Source: a virus (Duplodnaviria > Heunggongvirae > Uroviricota > Caudoviricetes). From it: 8,003 nt of DNA. The DNA lies in IMG/VR virus record IMGVR_UViG_2660238346_000006, positions 1 to 8,003 of that record. One strand, written 5' to 3'. The stretch's first letter is position 1. Every line of letters begins with the position of its first letter. A program made the position numbers and the translations under genes. The notes beneath the pieces were generated by a model, which searched no databases, was not told the DNA's origin, and worked only from the letters and a program-made list of their open reading frames with translations. Below are positions 1-8,003 of this stretch, in pieces.

Positions 1-67
1 CGCTTTACGTGCGACATATTCCCGTCCATGAACCCTTCACCACACCCCAAAGTTCACTTTGGTTATT

Positions 68-82
68 GCGCTTTGTCAGCGC
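68..82 (-). promoter_or_regulatory. Putative nutL boxB hairpin (P22-type, GACAA loop) on the leftward transcript
   Basis: Plus strand reads GCGCTTTGTCAGCGC, so the minus strand reads GCGCTGACAAAGCGC: a 5-bp GC stem with a GACAA loop, matching the P22-type boxB as I recall it. It lies left of the OL-like operators, where a pL transcript would carry nutL. Confidence 0.5.
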
Positions 83-149
83 CGTAGATTCATATTCGAA
101 TCGTTGTATATTCACCGCCCTGGTGAGTAGTGCGTCCTGCTGATGGGTG

Positions 150-270
150 AACTTTATCGGAATGATAAATTAATGGCAATAGCAAAATGATAAATTCTCT
201 TGGTTTTCAAATATCGTATTGATTCTTATGGTGTTTTATTTTGTTGTAGGAATTCGACAGGATAAATAAA
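150..270. promoter_or_regulatory. Putative OL/pL operator region with repeated TGATAAAT-type half-sites
   Basis: ATGATAAATT occurs at 162-171 and again at 187-196; TTTATC-N5-GATAAA inverted repeat at 154-170; GATAAAT at 261-267. The same motif family recurs in the cI/cro intergenic region (2621-2694). No sizeable ORF here. Confidence 0.45.
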
Positions 271-373
271 GAGATTTGAGGGAGATCTGGATTGCGTTGT
301 TTAGCAAGTTGTATCTATCAGTTTTTCAATAAATACAATCGATTATGTGTTTTTAGGTGGGCGAACGTGGGGC

Positions 374-399
374 AAAGAAAACCCGGCGCTGAGGCCGGG
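374..399 (-). terminator. Rho-independent terminator closing the leftward cI / toxin-antitoxin-chaperone operon
   Basis: Minus strand reads CCCGGC-CTCAGC-GCCGGG followed by TTTTCTTTG, starting about 10 nt after the stop of the SecB-like gene (409): GC-rich 6-bp stem, 6-nt loop, T-tract. Confidence 0.6.
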
Positions 400-408
400 T
401 GGGGAATT

Positions 409-813
409 TCACTTATTACTGTTCGTTTCCATGGGATTGGCCAAGAAATCAAAATAAGGCAGAGTGAACCTACCAAGGTTTGACATGAGGATAATTTGCT
501 CGGCATATGTTTTTATATAGGGATATGCCATATTGGGAGCAATGGACCTTACCTCATATGATTTTGCCATTTCATGAGAAAAATCATCTTCTGACCGGAA
601 GTCAAAGTCGTATGTGATGTCCATCTCAAGCCTGCCTTCAATAGTTACGGAGGCAAAATATCTCACTCTAAATAGCTTTGAATCCTTCACATTAGTGTAA
701 AGTTCATTATTTAGATTAACGGTTGTTTTTATGGATTTTTTTGCTGTTGAATCGCCTTCTAGCCGTGTCATAACCAAGCGTTCAACTTTTTTGCTAATGA
801 GTTCAATTTTCAT
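409..813 (-). CDS. SecB-like chaperone (third gene of the TAC-type module), 134 aa
   Basis: C-terminal segment APNMAYPYIKTYAEQIILMSNLGRFTLPYFDFLAN parallels the conserved E. coli SecB segment ([35 protein letters not shown], recalled from memory). Size is right for SecB-like chaperones. Start ATG overlaps the upstream antitoxin stop (ATGA at 810-813). Confidence 0.7.
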   Translation of the reverse strand: MKIELISKKVERLVMTRLEGDSTAKKSIKTTVNLNNELYTNVKDSKLFRVRYFASVTIEGRLEMDITYDFDFRSEDDFSHEMAKSYEVRSIAPNMAYPYIKTYAEQIILMSNLGRFTLPYFDFLANPMETNSNK

Positions 814-1466
814 GGTAATAATAAGTAATTTCCGTCAGAAGTCATTTCGTCATTCAGGTTGCTAGCCGCTGTGAAACTTGATGACAAGTTACTTATCAAA
901 GAAAAAACATTCCGTTTTTCTTTGCATTTGCCGTTACCCCTTACTGCGCTGAACAACATTTTTGAAAAGTAAGATTCTGTAGCCTTTTCAGCGAAATAAG
1001 CAGAAGGTGATGTGACGGCTGACTCACACCGAGCAATGACGCTAGTCATGGCTGTTTCTTCTTCCTCTGCGTCAACTAGGCTCCATTCAATTGCGCTCAT
1101 ATCTTGAATTAAGATATCTGCAGGAATTCCAAGTCCGTCATGTAGTCTACGGATCATTGAAAGACTTAATGGACGCTTACGATTTAAGACCTCAGATACT
1201 TTAGATGCTGAGCCAATGTATTGTTTCATATCGGCATAAGAGAGGCCTTGTTGATCCATACGGAACTTGATTGCTTCTATGGGATCTGGCTTGTCCATAG
1301 GGAACTCGCGTGACTCATAGTGCTCGATAAGCAAGCCTAGTAGTTCAAACTCATCAAAATCTTCAGTTCCAGGTTGTAAATCACTAGACGCAAGTTCAAT
1401 GAGCCTTTCCATAGCTGCAGCATGCTCTTCACTATTTTTAATGATGCGCCAGCTAGTTCGATTCAT
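810..1466 (-). CDS. higA: HigA-type antitoxin (XRE-family HTH) with ~90-aa C-terminal extension, putative chaperone-addiction region, 218 aa
   Basis: Residues ~95-130 (GSASKVSEVLNRKRPLSLSMIRRLHDGLGIPADILIQD) match the C-terminal HTH of E. coli HigA (GSKSMVSRVLSGKRKLTLEHAKKLATRFGISPALFID, recalled). The ORF then continues ~90 aa beyond where HigA normally ends. ATGA overlaps with higB upstream and the SecB-like gene downstream. Confidence 0.75.
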   Translation of the reverse strand: MNRTSWRIIKNSEEHAAAMERLIELASSDLQPGTEDFDEFELLGLLIEHYESREFPMDKPDPIEAIKFRMDQQGLSYADMKQYIGSASKVSEVLNRKRPLSLSMIRRLHDGLGIPADILIQDMSAIEWSLVDAEEEETAMTSVIARCESAVTSPSAYFAEKATESYFSKMLFSAVRGNGKCKEKRNVFSLISNLSSSFTAASNLNDEMTSDGNYLLLP

Positions 1467-1750
1467 TTAAGCCTCCACTTGTCGTACTCTGCATGAGTTC
1501 CAACTCTTTCAACTATGACCATTCCTGCCTGGTAAACAACTTGGACAACGAGCCGATAGTTATTGCCTTTTATATTAAAAATTACCCTGTTGTTAGGAAG
1601 GAAGTCGGCAGAATTAAATCTATTCCGTATGTCTTGAGTCGTTTTCCAGTTTTCTCTTATCACTTCATCATACCAAGAGTCTAAAGCCCCCTTGGCCTGA
1701 TTGTGCTTCTGGCTAAAACTGTGAAGCTTCTCTACGTTTAAGACCTTCAT
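1463..1750 (-). CDS. higB: HigB-family toxin (ribosome-dependent mRNA interferase, RelE superfamily), 95 aa
   Basis: FNIKGNNYRLVVQVVYQAGMVIVERVGTHAEYD aligns with E. coli K-12 HigB FNVGGNELRVVAMVFFESQKCYIREVMTHKEYD (recalled). Toxin-first gene order is typical of HigBA. Stop overlaps antitoxin start. Confidence 0.8.
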   Translation of the reverse strand: MKVLNVEKLHSFSQKHNQAKGALDSWYDEVIRENWKTTQDIRNRFNSADFLPNNRVIFNIKGNNYRLVVQVVYQAGMVIVERVGTHAEYDKWRLK

Positions 1751-1762
1751 AATCCGATTTTG

Positions 1763-1804
1763 TTCCCTCTTTGGGAATTATAGATTCATTTCCCATAAAG
1801 GGAA
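1763..1804. promoter_or_regulatory. Twin palindromes TTCCC-N5-GGGAA upstream of higB; candidate operator/promoter of the TAC module
   Basis: TTCCCTCTTTGGGAA at 1763-1777 and TTCCCATAAAGGGAA at 1790-1804 lie 13-54 bp upstream of the higB start, inside the 136-bp cI-higB intergenic gap. Type II antitoxins commonly autoregulate through palindromic operators. Confidence 0.45.
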
Positions 1805-1886
1805 TCTGTATTTTTATCCAGAAATGCTATGTACATCACCCAAACGTCTCTTCAGGCCACTGGTTACCAGCTATGTGACGATGAAG

Positions 1887-2591
1887 TCACGAACTTTTCA
1901 GCCACTCCCTTGCCTCGATGTCATCCAGATGGCGAGATTGCTTCAGAATACCAGCTACATACTCCACCTTTGCTACTTGATGATAAGGCAACGTTATAGG
2001 CCTGTGATCCTGGTTAATGCTTGTAAATTGGTATTCTCCATCTCTGTCATAGCCAAGAACCTTAATCATGTTGTGTCCTTCAACGGTTCTGACAAACACC
2101 TCATCACCCGGGAATACTTTGGTGTTAGGCTCAATGAGTACATATTCTCCTGATTTTATTCTGGGCCACATGCTGTCTCCTTTCACACGAAGACCAAAGG
2201 CATCTGGATCATCGCTATAAATTTTGAGCCACCCATCGCGCTCTTCGGTCATCTCGATGGCACCATCAACACCAAGAATTGCCTCACCAACCACGCGCAC
2301 TAACCCTTTTCTTACCTGACCGACAAAAGTTAAAGAATCTGAGAATGATGCAATTGGTGTTACATCATGTACCAAATCAAGCCACCCATTAGGTAACCCA
2401 AGCGCGGCTTCAAATTTTCTTGCTAGTTTATCCCCTATGTTTCGAGTGCTTTTTTCACCGGAGACTTGCGTGAGTTGAGAAGGGCTAACCCCAAGCTTAT
2501 CGGCAAAGCTTGCATTAGTGTTACCCGCGATTTTTTTATGCTCATCTAGCAAAAACGCCAGATTCGATTTGCGAATATCTTTGTTTTCCAT
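1887..2591 (-). CDS. cI: CI-like prophage repressor (N-terminal HTH, C-terminal S24/LexA-like autopeptidase), 234 aa
   Basis: HTH-like N-terminus (FADKLGVSPSQLTQVSG). C-terminal domain has the S24 catalytic-Ser motif (VKGDSMWPRIKSGEYVLIEP) and a downstream Lys (NMIKVL). Divergent from the cro-like gene across an operator-rich spacer. RBS GAGGGA upstream of ATG. Confidence 0.85.
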   Translation of the reverse strand: MENKDIRKSNLAFLLDEHKKIAGNTNASFADKLGVSPSQLTQVSGEKSTRNIGDKLARKFEAALGLPNGWLDLVHDVTPIASFSDSLTFVGQVRKGLVRVVGEAILGVDGAIEMTEERDGWLKIYSDDPDAFGLRVKGDSMWPRIKSGEYVLIEPNTKVFPGDEVFVRTVEGHNMIKVLGYDRDGEYQFTSINQDHRPITLPYHQVAKVEYVAGILKQSRHLDDIEAREWLKSS

Positions 2592-2704
2592 CTCACAATT
2601 TTCCCTCTATTTAGCAAATGGATAAATACGCAATATGATAAATTTACATTGCGGTTGATTTATCAAAATGGTAAAGTTGTTCTGTGTGATAAACGGAGGC
2701 ACTA
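2592..2704. promoter_or_regulatory. OR-type operator / divergent promoter region (PRM-like leftward, PR-like rightward)
   Basis: 113-bp spacer between divergent cI and cro-like genes containing GATAAAT (2621-2627), inverted TGATAAAT (2636-2643) and ATTTATCA (2658-2665), and TGATAAAC (2687-2694). Motif shared with the OL-like region at 154-267. Confidence 0.6.
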
Positions 2705-2938
2705 ATGAGTAATGAACTACTACGCTGGCGAAAAGAGGCTTCTAGCGAGGAATGGAAGCGACTCGCCGCATTAGCGAAAACTTCAGTTGGCTATCTTGAC
2801 CAGATTGCATATGGATTTCGAAGAGCTTCCCCTGATAAAGCGAATGCAATCGAAGAAGCTACTCGTAATTTCACGGGTTATAAACCTGTGAAAAAGGAAA
2901 ACCTAGTGTTCGTATCGCGTAGAGCATCGGCTGCATAA
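2705..2938 (+). CDS. cro: Cro-like small DNA-binding protein, 77 aa
   Basis: First rightward gene after the operator region, strong RBS (GGAGG) before ATG, small basic protein. Assignment is mainly positional; family membership not verifiable by eye. Confidence 0.6.
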   Translation: MSNELLRWRKEASSEEWKRLAALAKTSVGYLDQIAYGFRRASPDKANAIEEATRNFTGYKPVKKENLVFVSRRASAA

Positions 2939-2976
2939 GTAACACCGCTATTTTCACAATGGACATTCGTCCTACG

Positions 2977-2991
2977 TCGCTGACAAAGCGA
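2977..2991 (+). promoter_or_regulatory. Putative nutR boxB hairpin (GACAA loop), with possible boxA-like CGCTATTTT at 2946-2954
   Basis: TCGCTGACAAAGCGA: 5-bp stem with GACAA loop, near-identical to the minus-strand element at 68-82. Located between cro-like and cII, where lambdoid nutR sits. Confidence 0.5.
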
Positions 2992-3076
2992 GTCCCAATA
3001 TATCTGACCAACTAAGGCCATATGCGTTTCCACGCATACCTTTCAACTAACTATTCACTATTGGAAATATTAAGAA

Positions 3077-3442
3077 ATGACACAAACAAGTTACAGCAAA
3101 CTATCACAGCGTGACGTTGATCGCGCAGAAACAGATTTACTCATCAACCTATCAACGCTTACCCAGCGCGGTCTGGCAAAGATGATTGGCTGTCATGAAT
3201 CGAAGATAAGCAGAACGGACTGGAGACTTACCCAGCGCGGTCTGGCAAAGATGATTGGCTGTCATGAATCGAAGATAAGCAGAACGGACTGGAGATTTAT
3301 TGCTTCGGTCTTGTGTGCTTTCGGAATGGCATCAGACATCAGTCCGATTAGCAGGGCTTTTAAGTATGCGCTTGCTGAAATCACAAAGAAAAAACGCCCG
3401 GCGGCAACCGAGCGTTCTGAACAAATCCAGATGGAATTCTGA
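3077..3442 (+). CDS. cII: CII-like transcriptional activator carrying an in-frame 23-codon tandem duplication, 121 aa
   Basis: C-terminus [18 protein letters not shown] matches the lambda CII C-terminus as I recall it. Position between cro and O. Internal repeat [23 protein letters not shown] occurs twice consecutively. Confidence 0.85.
3158..3295 (+). repeat. Perfect 69-bp direct tandem duplication (2 copies) inside cII
   Basis: 3158-3226 and 3227-3295 are identical (cttacccagcgcggtctggcaaagatgattggctgtcatgaatcgaagataagcagaacggactggaga). Flanking bases differ on both sides. 69 bp = 23 codons, so the frame is preserved. Confidence 0.9.
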
Positions 3443-3474
3443 GGGAATTACTGGATCAATCCACAGGAGTAATT

Positions 3475-3621
3475 ATGACAAAACAACTCAGTCCTTACCA
3501 GGACAAAATTCACAAACACATACTACGTGATCGCTTCCTGTCCAGCTTCAAGCAGCCTGGTCGATTCCGGGCTGGGTTGGAAAAAGTGAAGCTGATGCAG
3601 AAGGAGAAAGGTCATGAGTAA
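3475..3621 (+). CDS. Small hypothetical protein (48 aa) between cII and O; below the ORF-track length cutoff
   Basis: ATG at 3475 preceded by GGAG (7-nt spacing); translates [48 protein letters not shown] with stop TAA 3619-3621, overlapping the O start. Hand-translated. Confidence 0.35.
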
Positions 3622-4519
3622 TCTTGCAACCGTAACACATTTAAGGCCTTCACAACGGCCTGTGGAGCGTCGTGTGGCAGAAGTTGAAGATGGTTATACC
3701 CGTCTTGCAAATGCCCTGTATGAAGAGCTTATCGGCGCAGATTTAACGAAAAATCAGAGCAAGGTTGCCCACGCCATATGCCGTAAAACATACGGCTACG
3801 GTAAAAAGATGGATCGCATCTCTGATAGTCAGTTAGCTCAAATTACCAGGCTGCCAAGACAGAAGGTAAACAAGGCCAAGAATGAGCTTATCGCGATGAA
3901 GGTTATCCTTCGCGAAGGCCAGCAAATCGGGCCTAACAAGAACATCGAGGAATGGCAAATCGAAGGGTGTCACTACTCTGGTGATAATGTCACTGCATTG
4001 GTGACAAAAAGTGTCACCAAAACGGTGACAGCGCTGTCACCAAAACAGGGACACACAAAAGAAACTATTACAAAAGAAAAAAGAAAAGATTATTCGTCCG
4101 AGAATTCTGGCGAATCCTCTGACCAGCCAGAAAACGATCTTTCTGTGGTTAAACCGGATGCTGCAATTCAGAGCGGCAGCAAGTGGGGAACAGCAGAAGA
4201 CCTGACCGCCGCAGAGTGGATGTTTGACATGGTGAAGACCATCGCACCATCAGCCAGAAAACCGAATTTTGCAGGGTGGGCTAACGATATCCGCCTGATG
4301 CGTGAACGTGACGGACGTAACCACCGCGATATGTGTGTGCTTTTCCGCTGGGCCTGCCAGGACAACTTCTGGTCCGGTAACGTGCTGAGTCCGGCCAAAC
4401 TCCGCGACAAGTGGACCCAGCTCGAAATCAACCGTAACAAGCAACAGGCAGGCGTGACAGCCAGCAAACCAAAACCCGACCTGACAAACACTGACTGGAT
4501 TTACGGGGTGGATTTATGA
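3614..4519 (+). CDS. O: Replication initiator protein O (lambda O family), 301 aa
   Basis: C-terminal half ([39 protein letters not shown]...[11 protein letters not shown]) matches lambda O as recalled. Contains iteron-like repeats plus an AT-rich tract mid-gene. Stop overlaps P start (ATGA). Confidence 0.9.
3968..4090. repeat. Putative replication origin: four iteron-like repeats with TGTCAC...GTGACA symmetry followed by an AT-rich tract, inside O
   Basis: Repeats begin near 3968, 3989, 4012 and 4034 (about 21-23 bp apart): TGTCACtactctgGTGATA, TGTCACtgcattgGTGACA, TGTCACCaaaacGGTGACA, TGTCACCaaaacagGGACAC. Followed by an A-rich stretch 4055-4090 (acaaaagaaactattacaaaagaaaaaagaaaag). Same architecture as ori-lambda, different iteron sequence. 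Confidence 0.6.
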
Positions 4520-5217
4520 AAAACATCGCCGCACAGATGGTTAACTTTGACCGTGAGCAGATGCGTCGGATCGCCAACAACATGCCGGAACAGTACGACG
4601 AAAAGCCGCAGGTACAACAGGTAGCGCAGATCATCAACGGTGTGTTCAGCCAGTTACTGGCAACTTTCCCGGCGAGTCTGGCTAACCGGGACCAGAACGA
4701 ACTGAATGAAATCCGCCGCCAGTGGGTTCTGGCTTTCCGGGAAAACGGGATCACCTCGATGGAACAGGTTAACGCAGGAATGCGCGTAGCCCGTCGGCAG
4801 AATCGACCATTTCTTCCATCACCCGGGCAGTTTGTTGCATGGTGCCGGGAAGAAGCATCCGTTATCGCCGAACTGCCAAACGTCAGCGAGCTGGTTGATA
4901 TGGTTTACGAGTATTGCCGGAAGCGTGGCCTGTATCCGGATGCAGAGTCTTATCCGTGGAAATCAAACGCGCACTACTGGCTGGTTACCAACCTGTACCA
5001 GAACATGCGGGCCAATGCGCTGACTGACGCGGAATTACGGCGCAAGGCTGCCGATGAACTGACCTGTATGATAGCACGAATTAACCGTGGTGAGACGATA
5101 CCTGAACCAGTAAAACAACTTCCTGTCATGGGCGGCAGACCTCTAAATCGAGCACAGGCTCTGGCGAAGATCGCAGAAATTAAAGCTAAGTTCGGACTGA
5201 AAGGAGCAAGTGTATGA
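4516..5217 (+). CDS. P: Replication protein P (DnaB helicase loader), 233 aa
   Basis: Sequence [44 protein letters not shown]... is essentially lambda P as I recall it. Translationally coupled to O and ren. Confidence 0.9.
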   Translation: MKNIAAQMVNFDREQMRRIANNMPEQYDEKPQVQQVAQIINGVFSQLLATFPASLANRDQNELNEIRRQWVLAFRENGITSMEQVNAGMRVARRQNRPFLPSPGQFVAWCREEASVIAELPNVSELVDMVYEYCRKRGLYPDAESYPWKSNAHYWLVTNLYQNMRANALTDAELRRKAADELTCMIARINRGETIPEPVKQLPVMGGRPLNRAQALAKIAEIKAKFGLKGASV

Positions 5218-5504
5218 CGGGCAAAGAGGCAATTATTCATTACCTCGTGGCGCATAAGAACTTCTGTGCACAGGACGTTTCCGCGGTAACAGGCGCAACC
5301 GTAACCAGTATAAATCAGGCTGCGGCTAAAATGGCGCGGGCAGGAATCCTTGTCATTGATGGTAAGGTCTGGCGAACGGTGTATTACCGGTTTGCTACCA
5401 GGGAAGAACGGGAAGGAAAGGTGAGCACGAACCTGATTTTTAAGGAGTGTCGCCAGAGTGCAGTGATGAAACGGGTATTGGCGGTATATGGAGTTAAAAG
5501 ATGA
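5214..5504 (+). CDS. ren: Ren protein (lambda ren homolog), 96 aa
   Basis: MTGKEAIIHY...VTSINQAAAKMARAG...VWRTVYYRFATREEREGK...KRVLAVYGVKR closely matches lambda Ren (96 aa) as recalled. Start overlaps P stop. Confidence 0.85.
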   Translation: MTGKEAIIHYLVAHKNFCAQDVSAVTGATVTSINQAAAKMARAGILVIDGKVWRTVYYRFATREEREGKVSTNLIFKECRQSAVMKRVLAVYGVKR

Positions 5505-5528
5505 CCATCTACATCACTGAGCTTGTAA

Positions 5529-5560
5529 CAGGCCTGCTGGTAATCGCAGGCCTTTTTATT
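5529..5560 (+). terminator. Putative rho-independent terminator downstream of ren (tR2-like position)
   Basis: CAGGCCTGC-tggtaatc-GCAGGCCT followed by TTTTTATTT: GC-rich 8-9 bp stem and T-run. Lambda has tR2 just downstream of ren at the start of the nin region. Confidence 0.5.
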
Positions 5561-5589
5561 TGGGGAAGAGTAATTGGAGGCTTTAAGAA

Positions 5590-5805
5590 ATGAGTACGAT
5601 AGCTGAGCTTGTCAGGGCTAATTTTCGTGAAGAGTTGGTGCGTTGGTATCGGTATCGTTCATCGTCCAGTTTGCCGCTTGATGAGTTGTATGAGCATTCA
5701 CCTGCCGCACGACGCTATCCGCGTGACCGTGTTCTTCGACGGTTGTTCAAACTCAACAATGAGTTTCAGCGCAACAGAATTATCCGGAGTCTGGATTTAA
5801 AGTGA
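5590..5805 (+). CDS. Hypothetical nin-region protein, 71 aa
   Basis: ORF with GGAGG 9 nt upstream of ATG; charged, helix-like composition. Preferred over the overlapping alternate-frame ORF 5609-5800, which is Cys/hydrophobic-rich and lacks an RBS. No recognised family. Confidence 0.4.
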   Translation: MSTIAELVRANFREELVRWYRYRSSSSLPLDELYEHSPAARRYPRDRVLRRLFKLNNEFQRNRIIRSLDLK

Positions 5806-5815
5806 AGGAGTGAGC

Positions 5816-6052
5816 ATGAGCGACCTATCATTAACCCAGCCAAAGCTAAAAGAATGTCCGTTTTGCGGCGGTAATGCTCGTCTGTGGGTTGAGGCCGGAA
5901 TAAATATTGATGTGTGGGGCTATGCAGAATGTGACCTCTGTGAAGCCAGGGGGGCATGGGCACCATCAGTTGCTGCGGCGGCTGAAAAATGGAACCGGAG
6001 AGCAGGAGATGAAGCAAACCTTTCTGCTTCGCAACGAAGCAATCAGAAATAA
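5816..6052 (+). CDS. Lar-family restriction alleviation protein-like (CPFCG zinc-ribbon), ~78 aa
   Basis: KECPFCGG near the N-terminus and EKWNRRA near the C-terminus match the Lar-family pattern as I recall it. ATG at 5816 has AAGGAG 5 nt upstream; the ORF-track start at 5810 is a GTG two codons earlier. Confidence 0.55.
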   Translation: MSDLSLTQPKLKECPFCGGNARLWVEAGINIDVWGYAECDLCEARGAWAPSVAAAAEKWNRRAGDEANLSASQRSNQK

Positions 6053-6455
6053 CGCCATAGACGCCATTCTCTCACTACCCATCGACGACAAGTCACCCCA
6101 CGAAGTCCACGTTAAAGAACCCAAGCGCAGCAAAGCGCAGAATGACCGTATGTGGCCGATGCTGAACGATGTTTCGCGTCAGGTGCTATGGCATGGTCAA
6201 CGGCTGGCGCCGGAAGACTGGAAAGACCTGTTCACTGCCCTGTGGCTTAAGACCAAAAAACTGGAGCAACGAAGTGTGCCTGGTATCGACGGTGGCGTTG
6301 TCATGCTTGGTGTGCGTACCAGCAAAATGCGAAAGGCCAACATGACTGAGCTTATCGAAATCATGTTCTGGTTCGGCTCAGAGCGCAACGTGCGGTGGAG
6401 TGATGACTCCTGGCGAGAGTATGAATGGTCACAACGAAAAGGGAAGGCTGCATGA
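6009..6455 (+). CDS. ninB: NinB (Orf family recombination mediator), ~148 aa
   Basis: KAQNDRMWPMLNDVSRQVLWHGQRLAPEDWKDLFTALWLKTKKL...MLGVRTSKMRKANMTELIEIMFWFGSERNVRWSDD resembles lambda NinB. Start chosen at ATG 6009 (GGAG upstream, lambda-like length) rather than the ORF-track start at 5907, which would add an N-terminal extension running through the Lar-like gene. Confidence 0.8.
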   Translation: MKQTFLLRNEAIRNNAIDAILSLPIDDKSPHEVHVKEPKRSKAQNDRMWPMLNDVSRQVLWHGQRLAPEDWKDLFTALWLKTKKLEQRSVPGIDGGVVMLGVRTSKMRKANMTELIEIMFWFGSERNVRWSDDSWREYEWSQRKGKAA

Positions 6456-6979
6456 CTATCAAATCAAATACGCCAGCACACGACAAGGACTGCTGGCAAA
6501 CGCCGCTTTGGCTTTTTGATGCACTGGATATTGAGTTTGGATTCTGGCTGGATTCGGCAGCGAGCGACAAAAATGCTCTGTGTGCTCACTGGCTAACTGA
6601 GGCCGACGACGCGCTCAATTCTGAGTGGGTAAGCCACGGTGCAATCTGGAATAACCCACCGTACAGCAATATCAGGCCGTGGGTGGAAAAAGCCGCTGAG
6701 CAGTGCATACAACAACGACAGACGGTAGTGATGCTTGTGCCAGAGGATATGTCTGTCGGATGGTTCAGTAAGGCTCTGGAGAGTGTTGACGAAGTTCGCA
6801 TCATCACTGATGGACGGATTAATTTTATCGAACCATCGACAGGGCTGGAGAAGAAGGGAAACAGCAAAGGTTCCATGCTGCTGATTTGGCGACCGTTCAT
6901 CAGTCCTCGACGGATGTTTACTACCGTATCCAAAGCGGCATTGATGGCGATCGGGCAGGGCGTCAGGAGGGCGGCATGA
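6452..6979 (+). CDS. Phage Dam-type DNA N6-adenine methyltransferase, ~175 aa
   Basis: NPPY catalytic motif ([10 protein letters not shown]); size and organisation typical of small phage N6-adenine methyltransferases. Start ATG 6452 overlaps ninB stop (ATGA); the ORF-track start at 6425 adds 9 codons. Confidence 0.8.
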
Positions 6980-7158
6980 GGCGACAGCGACGAAGTATCA
7001 CCGACATCATCTGCGAAAACTGCAAATACCTTCCAACGAAACGCTCCAGAAATAAACCCAGGCCAATCCCAAAAGAATCTGACGTTAAAACCTTCAATTA
7101 CACGGCTCACCTGTGGGATATCCGGTGGCTAAGACATCGTGCGAGGAAAACAAGGTGA
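6976..7158 (+). CDS. ninE: NinE, 60 aa
   Basis: [60 protein letters not shown] matches lambda NinE as recalled. ATG 6976 overlaps the methyltransferase stop (ATGA), in frame with ORF 6886-7158. Confidence 0.75.
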
Positions 7159-7298
7159 TTGACGTGATGATTTATTCGGGGCTATATTCCTCACGCGCCA
7201 GCAAAATCTGGCGTCGGGATTTGCACCCCGGATATTCAACCGCGACAGACACACGCCGCGAGCGTGTTTTTTGTTGTCGTAAGCACACGCACATCTGA
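7155..7298 (+). CDS. Small hypothetical protein at the ninF position, ~47 aa
   Basis: In-frame GTG at 7155 overlaps ninE stop (GTGA) with GAGGA upstream; alternative ATG at 7167. Product [47 protein letters not shown]; family not recognised. Confidence 0.35.
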
Positions 7299-7436
7299 AT
7301 TATGGTGGGGCGTATGGGGGAGCCGAAAGGCTCGCCGGTTGGTTGATCCGGTAGTGCAAACCCTGTACGTCTCACCACCCAAAGATTTGCACCTGACGGT
7401 GGTGATAGTTAAATTCATCAACCAGAGGGCGTTGTC

Positions 7437-8003
7437 ATGGCGACTCAAATTTCCGTTGAAACTCTTTCCCCAATTGCCTACAACCAGATCCCCGTAATTA
7501 CTACAGAATTATTGGCGCAATTGTATGGCACTGAAACAGTCAATATAAAAATGAATTTTTCCCGTAACTCTGCGCGATTTGTACAGGGAAAACATTTCTT
7601 TAAGTTGGAAGGGAATGAACTACGTGAGTTCAAGCACAGACTATCTTTAAGCGAGTCTGTTAGCCGCGAGGTAACAGAAAGTTACTCTGTGAAAATCGCC
7701 CGCAATGTTCGCTCCCTCATCCTCTGGACAGAACGAGGCGCAGCCCGTCACGCAAAAATGCTCGAAACTGATCAGGCGTGGGAAGTGTTCGAAAAACTGG
7801 AAGACTGCTATTTCAGCCAGTGCGAGAAAAATACTGGCAAACAAGAGAAGAAGCTCAACGGACTTTCCGCAAAAGAAGCAAACAGCCTTGTATGGCTATG
7901 GGATTATGCTAACCGTTCACAGGCATTATTCCGCGAACTGTATCCGGCGCTAAAGCAAATTCAATCGAACTATTCTGACAGGTGCTACAACTACGGTCAT
8001 GAG
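7437..8003 (+). CDS. ORF6N-domain / Roi-like DNA-binding protein, 5-prime partial (runs off the window end)
   Basis: Hand translation from ATG 7437 (GAGGG 8 nt upstream) is open to the end: [66 protein letters not shown]... The PVIT-x-LAxLYG-x-E-x-RN-x-RF-x-G-x-FFKL pattern is typical of ORF6N-domain proteins. Absent from the ORF track, presumably because it has no stop in the window. Confidence 0.55.

Follow-up and report, generated by a model that had tools for sequence, protein, structure and literature searches.

Probable GATAAA-type repressor operators in the H-19B-type immunity region of a lambdoid prophage

The immunity region of the Shiga toxin 1 (Stx1) phage H-19B is reportedly owed to Neely & Friedman 1998 and Shi & Friedman 2001. 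A passage of PMC8065619 (citing Shi & Friedman 2001) gives the right operator region (OR) of H-19B four operator sites, and the C-terminal domain common to the repressors of H-19B and 933W has been tied to non-cooperative DNA binding in 933W (PMC3202840). In GenBank, the immunity region of phage ST2-8624 (GQ499358, 'similar to bacteriophage H19-B') carries seven annotated 17-bp repressor binding sites, namely OL1-3 in the left operator region (OL) and OR0-3 in OR. Here, we compared these systems with the first 8,003 nt of IMG/VR virus record IMGVR_UViG_2660238346_000006 (hereafter the window, meaning the whole stretch analysed), whose genes were mapped from an open reading frame (ORF) listing and from Pfam, PHROG and Rfam family searches. 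Positions 150-2940 are almost certainly the immunity region of an H-19B-type lambdoid prophage, comprising OL with the leftward promoter PL, three accessory genes, cI, OR with the maintenance promoter PRM and the rightward promoter PR, and cro. The GATAAA(T) motifs repeated in this region are very probably half-sites of 17-bp operators bound by the cI repressor.

All seven operators of GQ499358 were found without a mismatch in the window (7/7) and in H-19B (AF034975; 7/7), and OL showed no difference from H-19B up to 278. The right region holds four consensus-type sites, starting at 2610, 2626 (or, as annotated, 2634), 2659 and 2677. The cI protein is identical to that of H-19B at 233 of 234 residues, with F83 here and C83 there in the linker, and Cro at 76 of 77. 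By megablast, 43-3100 shared 99.1% identity with BP-4795, ST2-8624 and Stx2a_WGPS9 and 98.6% with H-19B, and about 99% identity over 1-3100 was shared with many Stx1a-converting phages; the same immunity module is also carried by ST2-8624, BP-4795 and many Stx1a/Stx2a phages. A previous reading of this DNA, made from its letters without database searches (the sequence-only reading), had assigned the repressor to an immunity group other than that of lambda, and the comparison of cI and operators bears this out and identifies the group as that of H-19B. The immunity type is evidently an already known one, that of the Stx1 phage, and what is modestly new here is the doubtful OR2 annotation together with comparative evidence on which sites are constrained.

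The sequence-only reading had also reported repeated GATAAAT/ATTTATC motifs in both the left region and the cI-cro spacer, and the counts agree with it. GATAAAT occurs six times in the window (164, 189, 261, 2621 and 2637 (+), 2658 (-)), with every copy in the OL or OR region, against 1.23 expected by shuffling; one of 200 shuffles gave six. The near-identical agcaaa(a)tgGATAAAT contexts that it described were recovered as two repeat families, in which TAGCAAAATGATAAAT (180-195) and TAGCAAATGGATAAAT (2612-2627) are 88% identical and GCAAAATGATAAATT (182-196) and GCAATATGATAAATT (2630-2644) are 93% identical. Its TGATAAAT-type half-site came reasonably close to the half-site G(A/C)TAAA, but the unit that reaches significance is a 17-bp pseudo-palindrome, TTTA(T/G)C-N5-G(A/C)TAAA, and both the palindromic partner half-sites and OL3 had been overlooked. 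Four sites match TTTATC-N5-GATAAA at 10 or more of 12 positions (OL1, OR3, OR1 and OR0; scores in Table 1) against 0.44 expected, and three match at 11 or more against 0.027 expected, all of them lying within OL or OR.

To identify the constrained positions, we used a comparative set of three unannotated Pantoea prophages (L006-L008), obtained with the 85-aa cI N-terminal domain as query against a single genome of each species, and two E. coli prophages (strains 20.1 and 2824). The E. coli prophages have an identical cI N-terminal domain and diverged spacers, and they retain OR3, OR1, the GATAAAT at 2637-2643, OL1, OL2 and OL3; the Pantoea domains are 61-63% identical. In Pantoea the cI-cro spacer is colinear with that of the window, OR3, the 2626-2642-type site and OR1 are likewise 16 and 33 bp apart, OL1, OL2 and OL3 are spaced by the same 25 and 33 bp, and the half-site is likewise G(A/C)TAAA. 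The Pantoea prophages differ in their lambda-cI-like cI C-terminal domain, in lacking OR0, and in favouring GCTAAA over GATAAA. Site by site, OR3 is constant at 17 of 17 positions in the E. coli variants and in both half-sites in Pantoea, and OR1 is invariant in the former and keeps its half-sites in the latter, apart from one G/T change in the left half of L006 and L007. OR0 keeps its centre and right half in the E. coli variants and is absent from all three Pantoea relatives. OL1 is kept throughout, OL2 is constant in all relatives except for A/C at base 2 of the right half-site, and OL3 retains AATATC and GATT in the E. coli variants and reads TTTAGC..GATTTA at the same position in Pantoea. 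In both groups, divergence falls in the central 5 bp and in the spacers between sites, and the half-sites stay constant. The operators also co-vary with the cI N-terminal module, since mEp043 and 933W-type phages, which have different N-terminal domains, have entirely different palindromes. As the Pantoea C-terminal domain is lambda-like, the N-terminal module therefore appears to travel with the operators and not with the C-terminal domain.

Other explanations of the repeats were weighed against these data. The sequence-only reading had itself considered that the motifs might be AT-rich coincidences, and it is true that both regions are AT-rich (GC 0.37 and 0.33), that the 8-mer TGATAAAT with one mismatch tolerated is not enriched in the window (14 vs 9.3), and that 8/12 matches to the 17-mer stand at chance level there (36 vs 30). 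However, in a simulation whose sole constraint was the local base composition of the two AT-rich stretches between genes (144-408 and 2592-2704, 378 nt), GATAAA/TTTATC was expected 0.53 times and observed 8 times, and none of 5000 simulations reached 8; because of this excess, AT-richness fails to account for the motifs. With the excess of sites matching at 11 or more positions, and with half-sites fixed amid diverging centres and spacers, a coincidence without sequence-specific role is vanishingly unlikely. The repeats could alternatively be promoter elements or host-factor sites (-10-like, upstream promoter (UP) or integration host factor (IHF)-like AT boxes), with the repressor binding elsewhere: GATAAA-type hexamers do resemble -10 elements, one of them forms the predicted PRM -35, and OR1 overlaps the PR -10. 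Yet seven to eight copies, with inverted half-sites at a fixed 5-bp separation, far exceed the need of three promoters, and their layout relative to PL and PR matches lambda OL1, OL2 and OR1 to the base pair. Together with the co-variation with the cI N-terminal module and the GenBank label of repressor binding sites, this makes such an explanation highly improbable.

We consider it very unlikely, too, that the sites are 16-bp head-to-tail direct repeats of the TAGCAAAATGATAAAT type and not palindromes read by a dimer. Five copies do group as one direct-repeat family, 2612-2627 and 2628-2643 form an exact tandem, and the strong right halves all point in the same direction on the plus strand though PL and PR are divergent; but OL1 is a perfect palindrome and near-perfect ones occur at OR1, OR3 and the Pantoea O1 sites (e.g., TTTAGCGTTATGCTAAA), conservation of the left halves TTTA(T/G)C equals that of the right halves, and the central bases, on which recognition of a direct repeat would depend, are the least conserved. 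Operators of 17 bp read by cI thus remain our preferred interpretation of the repeats.

The C-terminal part of cI matched Pfam Peptidase_S24 (E=3.8e-16, 59.3 bits, cut-off 23.3), cI also matched a PHROG 'transcriptional repressor' family (E=3.7e-38), and PHROG repressor families matched aa 1-78. A protein search with the 85-aa N-terminal domain returned four fragments only, named by NCBI 'helix-turn-helix transcriptional regulator', and a PDB sequence search gave spurious pseudoazurin matches and, at a marginal E=0.063, the N-terminal domain of a phage CI. Cro matched PHROG 35 'transcriptional repressor' (E=4.4e-7) and no Pfam family, and the 5' end of cro is homologous in the Pantoea loci. 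A mosaic joint lies in cI near 2340 (about codon 84): DNA from 1838 to 2340 matches the phi24B/933W-type cI at 97.8% identity and the homology ends there, with cI aa 81-234 being 94.8% identical at the protein level. While the C-terminal domain is thus common to 933W/phi24B, the N-terminal domain and the operators of those phages (CGTACTGAAAGTACG type, with two OL sites) are unrelated, and the window has neither the cI N-terminal domain nor the CGTACT-type operators of the 933W immunity group. The predicted N-terminal DNA-binding module of cI (aa 1 to about 83) is specific to H-19B immunity.

The locus has the layout of a lambdoid switch, with divergent cI and cro, operators overlapping PR and PRM, and a second cluster over PL upstream of N. 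It resembles lambda in gene order, in its 17-bp pseudo-palindromic operators, of which OL has three and OR three or more, in the position of the O1 sites relative to PL and PR, in the first 15 nt of the PL transcript and in a predicted leaderless cI start. Unlike lambda, it has TTTATC-N5-GATAAA in place of TATCACCGC-type operators, a fourth operator over the PR start, a greater distance between PR and PRM, and a cI C-terminal domain of a different type. Neither a lambda cI N-terminal domain nor TATCACCGC-type operators, which characterize the lambda immunity group, were found: no similarity to the lambda cI N-terminal domain was detectable, and the two cI proteins align over no more than 45 residues of the protease domain, around its catalytic serine (36% identity). 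By blastn against lambda 34800-44000, homology was confined to 282-400, 1835-1862, 3381-3482, 4041-5570 and 6983-7163, and none was found at 100-281 or 1863-3380. The earlier claim of a non-lambda repressor and operators in a mosaic phage therefore holds on both counts, as 4041-5570 (O from the fourth iteron, P and ren) is 94.7% and 6983-7163 (ninE) 96.7% identical to lambda.

A generic promoter scan of the window gave six promoter-like sites vs 7.3 in shuffles, so that the promoter calls rest on homology and conservation. The predicted PL is the best minus-strand promoter match, and its TGGCAA is invariant in all relatives. Its -10 is followed by TCACCC and then by ATCAGCAGGACGCAC, the same 15 nt with which the PL transcript of lambda begins, which is why we place the PL start near 144. 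On this placement OL1 covers -9 to -25 of PL, as in lambda, and OL2 overlaps the PL -35 by 2 bp with its centre at -42 (lambda -41). The predicted PR mirrors PL through a 31-nt inverted repeat (150-180/2648-2678, 74% complementary); OR1 covers -25 to -9, the lambda OR1 position, and overlaps the -10, and OR0 straddles the predicted start (-7 to +9). TTGC and TAAA(G/C)T are kept in the Pantoea and E. coli variants, with the exception of L008, where the -35 is TTGATT. For PRM, the 18-nt stretch between the cI ATG and OR3 contains a single conserved block, GA(A/G)AAT (2603..2598), 6 nt upstream of the ATG; this -10 hexamer is conserved at 5 of 6 positions (GAAAAT/GAGAAT) vs 3 of 12 for the rest of the spacer, and OR3 covers -19 to -35. 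Transcription from PRM would start at or adjoining the A of the cI ATG (2591) and yield a leaderless cI mRNA, as from lambda PRM. A plus-strand match at 2611-2639 (TTAGCA-17-TATGAT) was discarded as a promoter, as it is operator sequence and lacks downstream gene logic. Within the cI-cro spacer, the window departs from H-19B and ST2-8624 at a single base, T2655 (A in both); it lies just past the predicted PR -35 and creates TTGATT at 2655-2660.

The register of OR2 is the point at which our reading departs from the database. Conservation and consensus matches suggest that the functional OR2 is somewhat more plausibly the site at 2626-2642 than the one annotated in GQ499358 at 2634-2650. In its register, the annotated site matches the consensus at only 4 of 12 positions; its right half, TACATT in the window, reads TTCATT or TCCATT in E. 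coli phages that share the repressor, 2644-2648 varies freely among relatives, and of the part lying outside 2626-2642 (2643-2650) 2 of 8 positions are invariant across Pantoea. The site at 2626-2642 offers a complete right half-site, matches the OL2 core at 93% identity and has 14 of 17 positions conserved in Pantoea, its GATAAAT (2637-2643) is retained in the E. coli variants and reads GCTAAA(T/C) in Pantoea, and its centre lies at -43 of the predicted PRM, where that of lambda OR2 lies at -42. The database layout, in which the conserved GATAAAT merely falls inside OR2, is the less probable of the two but a serious alternative: the annotation may stem from footprints, and the centre of the annotated site at -42 of the predicted PR, 25 bp from OR1, gives it lambda-OR2 geometry toward PR and OR1, with a spacing of 24-25 bp, and mirrors OL1-OL2. 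PR and PRM are 93 bp apart here vs 83 bp in lambda, and therefore no one site has lambda geometry to both promoters. mEp043 was rejected as a comparator for OR2, because, despite an overall cI identity of 50%, it has an N-terminal domain and operators (TACCT-N4-AGGTA type) of another specificity, which makes it uninformative.

A fuller arrangement, in which the annotation is 8 bp off, the OR spacings are 16, 33 and 18 bp, PR is repressed by OR1 and OR0, and the OR2-like site serves PRM activation only, is put forward as a doubtful possibility. If it were true, the 16/33/18-bp layout would suit a repressor with a non-cooperative 933W-type C-terminal domain; if the original footprints already put OR2 at 2626-2642, the discrepancy would be a simple GenBank slip.

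Several points weigh against the operator interpretation or its details. Repressor binding at these sites is taken from the GenBank annotation and one review sentence. The cI N-terminal match to HTH_3 (E=0.0049, 17.3 bits) falls below the 23-bit Pfam cut-off, and an AlphaFold2 model of cI built from the single sequence was unusable (mean pLDDT, the predicted local distance difference test score, 37) and was left unused. The predicted PL, PR and PRM match the promoter consensus weakly, at 7-9 of 12 positions. The annotated and the preferred OR2 differ by 8 bp, and OR3 and the preferred OR2 share 1 bp, which is unusually tight for two 17-bp sites.

From homology and the literature, we infer the following working scheme for binding, activation and cleavage, in which the locus is a standard lambdoid bistable switch with H-19B specificity. 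A cI dimer, and later Cro, would bind the 17-bp operators through an N-terminal helix-turn-helix module, Cro binding being presumed. In the lysogen, cI at OL1 and OL2 would occlude PL and cI at OR1 and OR0 would occlude PR. Positive autoregulation, with cI stimulating its own leaderless transcript, would depend on a site beside the PRM -35, most likely 2626-2642. Negative autoregulation would come from OR3, which overlaps that -35 and could shut PRM off at high repressor level, and after DNA damage RecA-stimulated self-cleavage of the S24 domain would lead to prophage induction. The H-19B immunity type controls the induction of Stx1/Stx2 prophages and hence toxin release, and the comparative footprint may be useful for modelling the H-19B switch: it questions the annotated position of OR2 and suggests that 261-267 is dispensable and OR0 lineage-specific.

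Not every left-hand motif is likely to belong to the operator set. Two left-hand GATAAAT motifs of the sequence-only reading fall in OL1 and OL2, but the third, at 261-267, reads AAGGAAT in both E. coli prophages of the comparative set, and because it is not conserved with the same repressor it is probably not an operator. A T-rich block just past OL3, GGTGTTTTATTTT (234-246), is conserved in the E. coli variants and Pantoea amid diverged flanks, and might serve PL as a host-factor element or as an upstream promoter element.

Table 1. Predicted and annotated features of the window. Scores are matches to the 12 half-site positions of TTTATC-N5-GATAAA.
Feature	Position	Strand	Sequence, score and remarks
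nutL boxB (likely)	68-82	-	
PL/OL region	150-230		
Predicted PL	151-179	-	-35 TTGCCA (179..174), 17-nt spacer, -10 TAAAGT (156..151), start near 144
OL1	153-169		TTTATCGGAATGATAAA; perfect palindrome, 12/12; identical to OL1 of GQ499358 and to H-19B
OL2	178-194		AATAGCAAAATGATAAA; annotated in GQ499358
OL3	210-226		AATATCGTATTGATTCT; weak, 7/12; annotated in GQ499358
Third left GATAAAT	261-267	+	lone half-site; 8/12 as 250-266
134-aa ORF	409-813	-	PHROG 10298; rexAB position of lambda
218-aa helix-turn-helix protein gene	810-1466	-	annotated elsewhere as HigA-family antitoxin; rexAB position
higB toxin gene	1463-1750	-	Pfam HigB E=4.5e-30; rexAB position
cI	1887-2591	-	234 aa
Predicted PRM	2598-2626	-	-35 TTTATC (2626..2621, within OR3), 17-nt spacer, -10 GAAAAT (2603..2598)
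OR3	2610-2626		TTTAGCAAATGGATAAA; 11/12; annotated in GQ499358
Proposed OR2	2626-2642		ATACGCAATATGATAAA; absent from the annotation of any record examined
Annotated OR2	2634-2650		TATGATAAATTTACATT; GQ499358
Predicted PR	2649-2677	+	-35 TTGCGG (2649-2654), 17-nt spacer, -10 TAAAGT (2672-2677), TG at 2669-2670, start near 2684
OR1	2659-2675		TTTATCAAAATGGTAAA; 11/12; annotated in GQ499358
OR0 (fourth right operator)	2677-2693		TTGTTCTGTGTGATAAA; 10/12; annotated in GQ499358
cro	2705-2938	+	77 aa
cII	3077-3442		
O	3614-4519		
P	4516-5217		
ren	5214-5504		
nin-type block	5590-7158		DUF7301, Lar, NinB, Dam, NinE
Antirepressor gene	7437 to past window end		

Of 5426 complete E. coli genomes, 216 (about 4%) carried the H-19B immunity module (2345-2940), with all copies chromosomal. 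On the chromosome of E. coli strain H19 (NZ_AP027165.1), the cI-N-terminal/OR/cro module occupies two sites, which places two prophages of the same immunity in one cell. H-19B likewise has the HigB/HigA-like genes and the 134-aa ORF between OL and cI. A hairpin resembling a terminator is located at 400-381(-). A boxB-like hairpin core, CGCTGACAAAGCG, occurs twice, at 68-82(-) in the PL leader and at 2977-2991(+) between cro and cII, with none expected by chance. These cores are likely the boxB elements of nutL and nutR; we take the core to be P22-like, and in H-19B the nutL and nutR boxB sequences fall within a 98.4%-identical stretch.

Downstream of cro, the window departs from H-19B in several places. 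A 69-bp in-frame tandem duplication in cII (3158-3299, 2.1 copies, 98% match), not found in H-19B, repeats 23 aa and gives a CII of 121 aa vs 98 aa in H-19B. It was found in none of the best phage records listed, in which a 231-base query aligned over 162 bases in two pieces, nor in any of the 5426 complete E. coli genomes, and it recurred in one IMG/VR contig, which matches window 1-5081 at 99.98% identity. The duplication might affect the establishment of lysogeny by this prophage. The segment encoding the O N-terminal half and the iterons (3483-4040) had no DNA match to lambda or H-19B, and the nin region past ren is not H-19B-like either. The origin has four 19-bp iterons of the TGTCAC-N7-GGTGACA type, starting at 3968, 3988, 4012 and 4035 (3968-4053), and lambda homology restarts at 4041, within the fourth iteron.

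The nin cargo is unlike that of lambda, with DUF7301 (5590-5805), a Lar restriction-alleviation protein (5810-6052), NinB (6009-6455) and a Dam-type N6-adenine methyltransferase (6452-6979), followed by a lambda-like NinE (6976-7158). Rfam searches placed isrK at 7195-7272 (76 bits) and C4 antisense RNA at 7298-7382 (74 bits), directly upstream of the antirepressor ORF (ORF6N and P22_AR_C, from 7437), and the a1/b1 targets of C4 at 7182-7234 scored 45.8 bits, just below the gathering cut-off of 46.7. By these family matches, 7182-8003 is a P1/P7 immI-like RNA-controlled antirepressor module and forms a second control layer, which could act on the cI repressor.

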